Positions 51,301 through 54,300 of a DNA stretch of 64,000 nucleotides are shown here, one piece after another. A model generated the notes under the pieces. It was not told where the DNA came from and did not search any database. It saw only the letters and a list, made by a program, of their open reading frames with translations. The stretch's first letter is position 1, and each line of letters opens with the position of its first letter. Made by a program: the position numbers and the translations under genes. Source of the DNA: Podarcis cretensis (lineage: Eukaryota); contig OX638149.1 of assembly GCA_951804945.1 (NCBI GenBank), positions 106,640,001-106,704,000 on the forward strand, read 5' to 3'.

Positions 51301-54300
51301 TCGGAACTAAATTAAGTAGTGCCACATTAAGGAAAAGACATGATATTTGTTAAAATGTAGAGGAAGACAGATTTACCTATAGAAAAGAGGAAGAGGAGTA
51401 AGTGGGTGTGAATCCCCCCATCTGAAGAAATAAATTACCTTTTCTTTCTTTGATAAGAAGAATAGGACATCTTCATAGATTTCAAGACGATCACGTTCTG
51501 ATATTGCATTCCAGACTTCCATCTCTCCAAACATTTGTTCAGCTTTTCTGTATAGAAATAGGAAGAAAAAAGGCTCTATAAATCACTTTGCTCCCACTCT
51601 TTCACACTGATCAGTCAACATCCCAATCCTTGCCAAATGTGTGATAACCAAGAGAGTATAAAATGTGTAATCATACGTAACTCATGTTTAACATTACAAA
51701 ATCATTCCAGCTTGCAAAGCTAAAATAAAAGAACTAATGTGTTAACAATTTAGATTTTTTTAAAAGTTCTATGTGTTGTATTCCAGCTCCTGCCATTTCT
51801 TTTCTCCCATTGCTTGGATGAAAGGTTTTTGTATTTTTAAATGGATCCCTTCCTTGCTTGCATCCATTCCCAATACATATTTTGCCAACAGTCTCAGTGA
51901 CAACTTCTCACACACTGCAGTCTTTGTACAAATGCAGAGGCAACCATGGTTTGGATCTAGACTTTCAAATGGCTGCAGAGTCGGAGTTTCACTCAACAGA
52001 AAAGGGGAGGGAATAGACTTCTGCCAAGTCCTCCTCCTCCATATAAATCTGCACCAGAAAGGAGGCATGGGCAGCAGAAGTAGAAATTGGAGAACATAAC
52101 CTTGCAACAGTGACTTTGCACAAATTGTTATTCCCCATAGCACAGTATTTGAAACAGTATTTTAAAGTGTTGTTTTTTTAATTCACATTCCCCTCTTAAG
52201 TCAACCCAGGCTCAAGTTTTAAATTTAGAACTGTACAACTAGTATTATGCATTAGATTTATCTTACTTGTATCTGGTAGTGGATGTCATCTTTTCGTGGT
52301 TCTCAAGGAAACGCTGAAAAGATTCTTTTGCCTCTTTGTATTTTAATCTTGCTTCTTCTTTTTCTTCTTTCTCTGTCTGGACCTTGTAAGCATTAAATGC
52401 TTGCTTCTTCTCACTTAGTTTTGCCAAAGCACTACAAATTAAAGAAAAAAGCCATAAATTTATTGATAAATGCAGTATCAATTGATCTTTTTACGAAGAT
52501 TCCTTTTAACACTGCACACAGGGAGAGAGTTTCAAAGTACTTAGTACACAATTGCTTCCCCTCAAAACAACAACAACCCAGTTTTAAAAAAACTGTTCAG
52601 GAGAAAAACAAGTTAAATTTATTTATTTATTTAAAATATATACATAACTTTTTTTTACATGTTTCTCAAAGTGGCATACGAAGAAAAACATACAACTTAC
52701 ACAATTTTAAAAAGATTAAATATATCAGAAAATAGGAACATCAGGGCAACATTCAAACCATGAGCTCACTTGAGCTGTCAGAACATCAGTTTATACACAC
52801 AACTACCGGTACTTAAAAGCATGTTGATTAAAAAGAAAATAGGAACAGCATACCTGTATCTTGGATCGTTAATTATCATTTTCATAGCTTGCTCCCAAGA
52901 GGCGTTGGATGGCACACGCTATGAAGACATGAAGTAAATCATGTAAGTCCTCAAATCAGTACTTCTGTTTGTGCAACGGTAGCTTTAGGAATGCTAGCTA
53001 AGGTAAGAATGGATGCATCTAAATTGTGCAGTGGGGCATAGTTGTCAAATGTACTGATTCAGATTATTTGGTGGCAAAAGTGGGTAAATATTCTGCTTGG
53101 TATGTTTTTATTATAAAAATAAAAGAATATTTGTACAAAGGACTGTCATATTTCTTTGCTTTTCCTGTAAAAATGATAAACTACCATAAAACTAGGAAAT
53201 GATAAATTTGGTACACAAGACACTTTCTGTATTCATGAGTATTTTTAGCCTTCTCATAATTTACTTACACTTCTAGAAATGGTGCATCAATCAGTTCGTA
53301 CATGAAAGCAAACCATAGTTAACATATTCAGGTAGGTAGCCGTGTTGGTCTGACGCAGTTGAAATATATTAAAAATTGTCCAGTAGCACCTTAGAGACCA
53401 ACTAAGTTTGTTCTTGGTATAAGCTTTCGTGTGCATGCACACTTCTTCAGATACACTGAAACAGAAGTACTATATAGAAGTGTCTGGTGACTTCTGTTTC
53501 AGTGTATCTGAAGAAGTGTGCATGCACAAGAAATCTTGTATCAAGAACAAACTTAGTTGGTCTCTAAGGTACTACTGGACAATTTTTTTGTTTGTTTACA
53601 TAGTTATCAGATTACTGTTAACACACCTGTCTGGACTGCTTTGTTTCGTCCTATAGCATACAGAGGAAACAAACCACAATCTGATTGAAACATAGCACTA
53701 AGCCAGGGTTTGTCATTTGCTTTCCCCCAAGTGCTAGTAAAGAGAAGCAAAGCATGCATGATTGGCTTGTATATGATTTAGCCTTTGTTTATGGCTTATC
53801 ATGAGTGAATATGGCTAGTGTTGCATTCCTTATTTTCTAACTTTTTTTGATAGGGTGGTAAGCTAATAAAAACATAGGGCTTTGTCCTTTTGATTCTGCA
53901 GTGATGTTTCATTAGTAACATTTGGGATGTAATACCACTTAATAAAGCAACATCTGACTCTTCAGAGTGAGAATTTACAAAGAGTAAGCGGATACCGGTA
54001 ATTGAAGTTTTTAAACACAACCGTTTTTCCTTCTCTTCATCCCCCCCCCCAACGGCCAATTCTGCAAATGTGGAACTGTTGTGCCACCAGAATGCTCTTC
54101 TCACATAAAAATTTCATTTGTCTTTCCTTCTTTGGTCCCACTGCCCCCCGCAAAAGACCTAAACAAATGTAAGAATTTTTCACCAATACTGGAGCATGAT
54201 GTGAAAGTTTATACCAAGTGCATTTTGGCTAGAATATTCTTTCCATGTTTACTTCAGTATGAATGTTATTCCATAAAGTTTCTTTCAAAATCAGCAATTC

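Follow-up and report, generated by a model that had tools for sequence, protein, structure and literature searches.

The best explanation of the hammerhead motif in an intron of PRPF40A, with a probability of about 0.9, is an old fold-back insertion, likely Penelope-like, of which the motif forms one arm; a 98-bp hairpin predicted for the pre-mRNA would keep it closed, so that it likely never cuts. The window (the whole 64-kb stretch of DNA that was analysed) holds a complete motif, in an intron and sense to the gene, within two head-to-head arms of which one carries a tail; the element is repeated as a family, and its right junction is present in four related organisms. The original prediction of a Penelope-type motif lying sense in PRPF40A, with a damaged twin nearby, thus stands, while its suggestion that the pre-mRNA cleaves itself to a meaningful degree is not supported.

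The host intron has its GT at 54363 and its AG at 52919, and the flanking exons join in frame (Table 1). Matches of the PRPF40A exons to the FF1 domain (PDB 1uzc/2l9v), including that of the exon after 52854–52918 to 2l9v (E 6.6e-7), agree with these borders and with the proposed placement in a PRPF40A intron in the transcribed orientation. A literature search for PRPF40A together with ribozymes, with most subscription journals outside its scope, found no papers. A formin-like gene, presumably FMNL2, has exons at approximately 9300–37000 on the plus strand of the window; it includes a polyproline tract and is arranged tail-to-tail with PRPF40A.

Table 1. Features of the fold-back element and its host intron (window positions).
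Feature	Position	Strand	Basis
Host intron, 1,445 nt, GT-AG, inside the FF1-coding region of PRPF40A	52919..54363	-	Splice sites, frame
Upstream PRPF40A exon, ends ...KELLKEK	54364..54472	-	PDB 1uzc match, E 2.4e-11
Downstream PRPF40A exon	52854..52918	-	In-frame splice
Left arm, pLTR-like fragment of a terminal repeat truncated at its 5' end, sense to PRPF40A	53326..53468	-	Arm alignment, common family end
One-sided extension of ~45 nt, left arm only, fits a Penelope 'tail'	53326..53370	-	Alignment, family end
Complete minimal type I hammerhead	53417..53454	-	Sequence, descriptor search, turtle comparison
Predicted scissile bond, after U17	53420..53421	-	Position index, prediction only
Right arm, inverted head-to-head copy, without tail	53469..53598	+	Alignment, family consensus
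Hammerhead copy decayed by four changes, whose complement is predicted to block the intact copy in the pre-mRNA	53504..53541	+	Comparison with intact copy, folding
Candidate 8-bp target-site duplication CATAGTTA, left copy	53314..53321	+	Direct repeat
Candidate 8-bp target-site duplication CATAGTTA, right copy	53599..53606	+	Direct repeat

Read from 53454 down to 53417 on the minus strand, the motif runs GUAU, CUGAAGA, A, GUGUG, CAUG, CACAC, GAAA, G, C, U, U, A and UAC, letter for letter and in the layout first described. Stem I is 4 bp (GUAU/AUAC), the core boxes are CUGAAGA with an extra A and GAAA followed by G-C-U-U, and stem II is 5 bp (GUGUG/CACAC) with a CAUG loop and a closing G10.1-C11.1 pair. 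Stem III is absent, its place being taken by the palindrome AAGCUU (15.2–16.2). The minimal hammerhead (min-HHR) pattern is therefore complete, with the core CUGANGA plus one nucleotide, GAAA, U-H, a short stem I and a palindromic 15.2–16.2, and the core, short stem I and palindromic stem III remnant bear out the proposed Penelope-type class. Indexing of the positions (U16.1 = 53422, U17 = 53421, A1.1 = 53420) leads to the same predicted cut, between 53421 and 53420, as had been proposed. The distance from this bond to the 5' splice site is 943 nt, and that to the 3' splice site 502 nt.

The core boxes alone occur at chance level, with 9 matches across the window where 5.4 are expected, and with 10 of 100 shuffles reaching 9. 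The full descriptor, which asks for a stem I of at least 3 bp, CUGANGA[N], a G-C-closed stem II and GAAA-N-N'-U-H, matches 53417–53454 alone in the 64 kb and none of 500 dinucleotide shuffles. The Infernal search with Rfam models that the original prediction had called for gave 0 matches at the gathering threshold in the whole window, and no hammerhead was among the 18 matches with E-values up to 10 in 53200–53700; because the motif has no stem III, this negative result is uninformative here. Seventeen of the 18 matches were to miRNA precursors, an identity we rejected, as all fall below gathering and these models score any long hairpin.

Stem II and its loop (53429–53442) form a perfect 14-nt palindrome, for which an intermolecular 14-bp duplex is predicted at −25 kcal/mol compared to −4 kcal/mol for the hairpin, and cofolding of two motifs is likewise predicted to favor this duplex. 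Within the repeat family, the palindromic stem II could aid or impede the formation of dimers. Other palindromic elements lie in the window at 3506–3641, 10753–10883 and 24815–25005, the first two being 94% alike over 122 nt; the descriptor finds no hammerhead in any of these, and they are probably MITE-like. The window also contains dispersed repeat pairs at 17029–17246/43432–43649 (inverted, 92%) and 268–635/9988–10346 (direct, 80%).

Published work already covers this class of motif, the shape of the insertion and a turtle family that is nearly identical. Of 34 non-loop positions, the lizard motif shares 30 with the min-HHR of Chrysemys picta bellii in Fig. S3 of PMC4209133; the remaining four amount to two compensatory pairs, C-G to U-A in stem I and G-C to U-A in stem II, a covariation that comes from a single comparison read by eye. 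Both motifs are type I and share CUGAAGA with the extra A, G10.1-C11.1, GAAA-G-C-U-U, a 4-bp stem I and a 5-bp stem II, whereas loop II is 4 nt in the lizard, where stem II is palindromic, and 7 nt in the turtle (PMC4209133). The lizard copy further differs from the turtle family entry in its host and in being buried in a fold-back. The same source describes minimal hammerheads in their thousands per genome, with similar ones in turtle and snakes, and pairs of motifs on opposite strands 100–700 bp apart; in its assays, a single motif gave no cleavage and dimers cleaved weakly (PMC4209133).

The arms of the element pair over 53371–53468 and 53490–53587, an inverted repeat of 98 nt with 95% complementarity, and the hairpin of the two is predicted at −156 kcal/mol (z = −21). 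Aligned in the ribozyme sense, the left arm starts 14 nt before stem I, and it may extend to 53322 at its other end if the candidate target duplication is correct. Its tail shortens to 34 nt if the right arm is taken to extend to 53598, and a second family loose end at 53371 could be either a terminus or a variable T-rich linker. A further loose end at 53379 was rejected as a terminus and read as a subfamily variant, being short and of shared consensus. The right arm is 21 nt longer at its 5' end, and these letters (53469–53489) are family sequence and not host DNA; loose ends before 53469 agree on one upstream consensus (agreement 0.64–0.93), and the stretch is also present in P0003, an ENA protein. 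At the other end of the right arm, 53588–53598 is T-rich and of uncertain origin. Truncation has thus left the arms with 14 and 35 nt ahead of stem I, and the locus contains no ORF. An 8-mer is shared as closely as in the candidate duplication by 277 of 20,000 random local pairs of 30-nt stretches. A search of the 64-kb window for further copies of the element found none, leaving a single inverted pair that is not tandem.

Contigs of 4 sequencing runs (of 24 listed) were aligned to 1.8 kb around the element, with 10137, 9236 and 12246 contigs aligning in three high-depth runs and 478 in the fourth, which is guessed to be RNA. In the three high-depth runs, the depth summed over 53371–53431 is more than 10,000 times that of the flank, a ratio that is not a copy number, and the element belongs to a highly repeated family. 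In all four runs, family members share an end at 53326 and have loose ends behind 53453–53456, just 5' of stem I. Pivots, where a copy turns back on itself, were found as 236 joints, which derive from other family copies and not from the PRPF40A locus; among the 15 listed, 10 exit at 53453–53456 and all 15 re-enter at 53498–53508. As 10 of these 15 pivot at the same place, fold-backs are typical of the family, and since the point at which many copies stop or turn back is no more than 3 nt from the 5' edge of stem I, the reverse transcriptase likely passes the uncut ribozyme and halts behind it. P0003 can be read as a further fold-back, one that has its inner sequence in common with the PRPF40A copy.

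The insertion at PRPF40A is shared by relatives. Its right junction (boundary at 53598) is bridged by at least 31 letters in 4 of 4 runs, and its left junction in 1 of 4 (X16), with X9 reaching 27 letters and X1 and X5 having a hole at 52700–53300 that proves nothing. Compared with the flanks of the element, organism G shows 16 differences in 462 letters and 28 in 811, and it shares the junctions, so the insertion predates the split from organism G. This sharing is seen in close relatives, through contigs that reach the junctions, none running across the element. The repeat also lies, in the same frame, inside gene models of Podarcis muralis (GINS2) and Zootoca vivipara (TMEM251-like), known here as P0005 and P0006, which reflects either exonisation or annotation error; these peptide matches point to a lacertid as the probable host.

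One of the three reading frames of the left arm runs open for 55 codons. Peptide searches for a link to a reverse transcriptase (RT) or GIY-YIG endonuclease, in which 4 of 5 candidates and 5 matches were scored, reached no RT or endonuclease family; they returned repeat fragments in two named lacertid gene models and in unnamed ENA proteins, along with P0007, a repeat artefact. DNA scans for the element gave 0 viral contigs and 0 genome contigs, and 31 metagenome-contig loci were rejected as copies and put down to chance, two extending to 20–31 nt and none to the element. The turtle row, too, is without the asterisk that marks a mapped Penelope-like element (PLE) ORF in that figure (PMC4209133). 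Penelope membership therefore rests on the motif and the architecture. Upstream of the element, the window holds a broken LINE reverse-transcriptase fragment (56726–57946, plus strand; Pfam RVT_1, E 1.4e-18), which looks RTE/BovB-like.

The architecture is close to that of known PLE insertions. The EN+ PLE unit has been described as an inverted 5'-truncated copy with a tail of 30–40 bp at one end (PMC8557442), and PLE head-to-head junctions with target duplications of 8–10 bp, as well as the tail, are described in PMC3846280. The element shares with this canonical unit the head-to-head inverted terminal repeats, the tail on one arm and a hammerhead in the repeat, and its 8-bp candidate duplication falls within the reported range (PMC3846280). 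Unlike the canonical unit, it is without an ORF, its arms are truncated 14 and 35 nt upstream, and its tail is ~45 nt. There is also a likeness to Poseidon_Ac (PAc) of Anolis carolinensis, a lizard PLE with a hammerhead ~110–150 nt inside the 3' end of its repeat, a tail, AT-rich targets and uncut RNA as its template (PMC11167929). The same study reports that the PAc ribozyme needs the protein of its element in order to cleave and that RNA-seq reads do not end at its site. By eye, the PAc RNA (Fig. S1, PMC11167929) is unlike the element in the window, and the two therefore likely belong to different families. Following this published work, a Penelope-like RT would have started within its RNA, copied through the uncut ribozyme, halted just upstream of it and then folded back or re-primed, which would have placed two 5'-truncated inverted copies in an AT-rich target and duplicated 8 bp of it.

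Transcription of PRPF40A runs from high to low coordinates, so that the complement of the motif (53587 to 53490) is made before the motif itself. The antisense arm would thus be available first, and the sense arm is predicted to zip onto it from 14 nt before the ribozyme; in stepwise folding, the hairpin is present as the first motif base (53454) emerges and then grows through the motif. Per-base pairing in a 500-nt context places 33 of the 38 motif bases in pairs with the right arm at a probability of at least 0.8. The 5' half of the motif (the 5' strand of stem I, CUGAAGA and stem II) lies in an unbroken 39-bp duplex with pairing probability of at least 0.98, and the arm mismatches loosen the 3' half only.

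The predicted cost of the hammerhead fold was compared in four contexts that include the right arm and three that lack it. With the right arm, it is 47.0 kcal/mol whether the RNA folded is the entire element, the 500-nt context or the full intron, and 44.2 kcal/mol in the nascent RNA just past the motif, while without it the cost is 1.4–2.0 kcal/mol (the motif, a 53400–53470 construct and the left arm). The 53400–53470 construct, which had been proposed for testing cleavage, excludes the blocking arm. A dimer in trans is predicted to contribute just a 4-bp helix (−2.5 kcal/mol). These energies are equilibrium values from a model without proteins, helicases or editing, and the margin is large. 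With the blocking arm transcribed first and a cost of 47 against 2 kcal/mol, cleavage of the pre-mRNA is unlikely, which argues against the proposal of a potentially self-cleaving PRPF40A transcript. On this model, the ribozyme core would never fold and the intron would be spliced out whole, no cleavage with normal splicing being the likeliest outcome and the hammerhead likely inert and ordinary. In the contigs of the family, no loose end falls at 53420/53421 among the 24 listed, a further 790 lying beyond that list. The run guessed to be RNA has a contig depth of 17.1 on the downstream side of the element and of 13 on the upstream side; such contigs show neither ends nor levels, and this therefore weighs neither way.

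The copy on the right arm, which had been noted as damaged, carries four changes, C11.1 to A (53529), G15.2 to U (53534), A1.1 to G (53538) and C1.4 to U (53541), with both core boxes unbroken and the two stem I changes still giving G-U pairs. Polarity of the arm differences was read from the peptides P0001/P0002 against P0003–P0005, the turtle row, and position 53538 in family contigs. All five differences are derived on the antisense arm (P of about 0.06, post hoc), and four of the five fall within the motif, where they face the ribozyme's 3' half (P = 0.07, post hoc). This bias is the sole hint of selection and falls short of significance. The intact state of the sense copy requires no selection, since at 1.75–3.5% divergence the probability of no change in 38 nt is 0.26–0.51. 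Nor is its orientation a sign of selection: a fold-back has one copy per strand, so any intronic insertion holds one in the sense direction.

The antisense bias is what would be expected had the host co-opted the element, with the sense ribozyme kept by selection as the blocking arm decays opposite its cut site, so that a domestication gated by a protein, a helicase or A-to-I editing opening the hairpin would now be under way. We regard this as very improbable. The insertion is common to related organisms, protein-assisted cleavage is known for PAc (PMC11167929), and conserved intronic hammerheads exist in amniotes, those in RECK, CTCL and DTNB being conserved across amniote groups and having tertiary contacts (PMC6155905). 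The PRPF40A copy resembles these in being type I and sense in an intron, but it is repeat cargo and not an amniote-wide element, is shown in close relatives only, lacks both stem III and the contacts between helices I and II that canonical type I motifs have, and comes with an antisense blocker. Opening of the hairpin would cost 44–47 kcal/mol, with the 5' half of the motif in the unbroken duplex, and the two P values are post hoc. We rejected a domesticated amniote hammerhead, on the absent stem III and on the modelled cost of 47 kcal/mol in context. It is equally improbable that the ribozyme cleaves, probably once dimerized with a second family transcript, and in this way lowers or reroutes PRPF40A splicing. 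If it did, a gated ribozyme would cut the pre-mRNA of a U1-associated splicing factor by trans-dimerization with abundant repeat transcripts, and would be the first minimal Penelope hammerhead seen here to regulate a host gene, with a bearing on the cellular role of these motifs.

Any effect of the insertion would more likely come from the double-stranded intronic hairpin. It is possible, if rather unlikely, that the 98-bp duplex is edited by ADAR or bound by dsRNA-binding proteins and slightly shifts the speed of splicing or the retention of the intron. The stability of the hairpin, its position 400 nt from the 3' splice site and the intron contigs in the run guessed to be RNA are consistent with this, but the hairpin overlaps neither a splice site nor the acceptor region, and family members of the same shape are common. 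With thousands of copies piling up, editing is not assignable to the PRPF40A copy. A literature search combining Penelope, reptile, hairpin, A-to-I and intron found no papers, most subscription journals again lying outside its scope. The origin of the element could also differ from a direct Penelope-like insertion, in that a non-autonomous hammerhead element, retrozyme- or MITE-like, may have spread as a hairpin unit. The very high repetition of a short unit and the absence of an RT link in the peptide searches would suit such an element, and animal retrozymes stem from PLE terminal repeats, but retrozymes are defined as tandem repeats (bioRxiv 10.64898/2026.07.22.740005) and the copies here are not tandem. 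A non-LTR retrozyme was rejected on the single inverted pair and the lack of tandem head-to-tail repeats in the 64-kb window. The pivots vary between copies across the 236 joints, the common family sequence continues upstream, and the unequal arms with a one-sided tail are as in PLE truncation products, which makes spread as a hairpin unit improbable.

As an inert arm of a Penelope-like fold-back, the PRPF40A hammerhead is ordinary, one of very many copies of a published ribozyme-bearing repeat. It nevertheless shows why such insertions can be tolerated in genes, as the fold-back supplies its own antisense lock.
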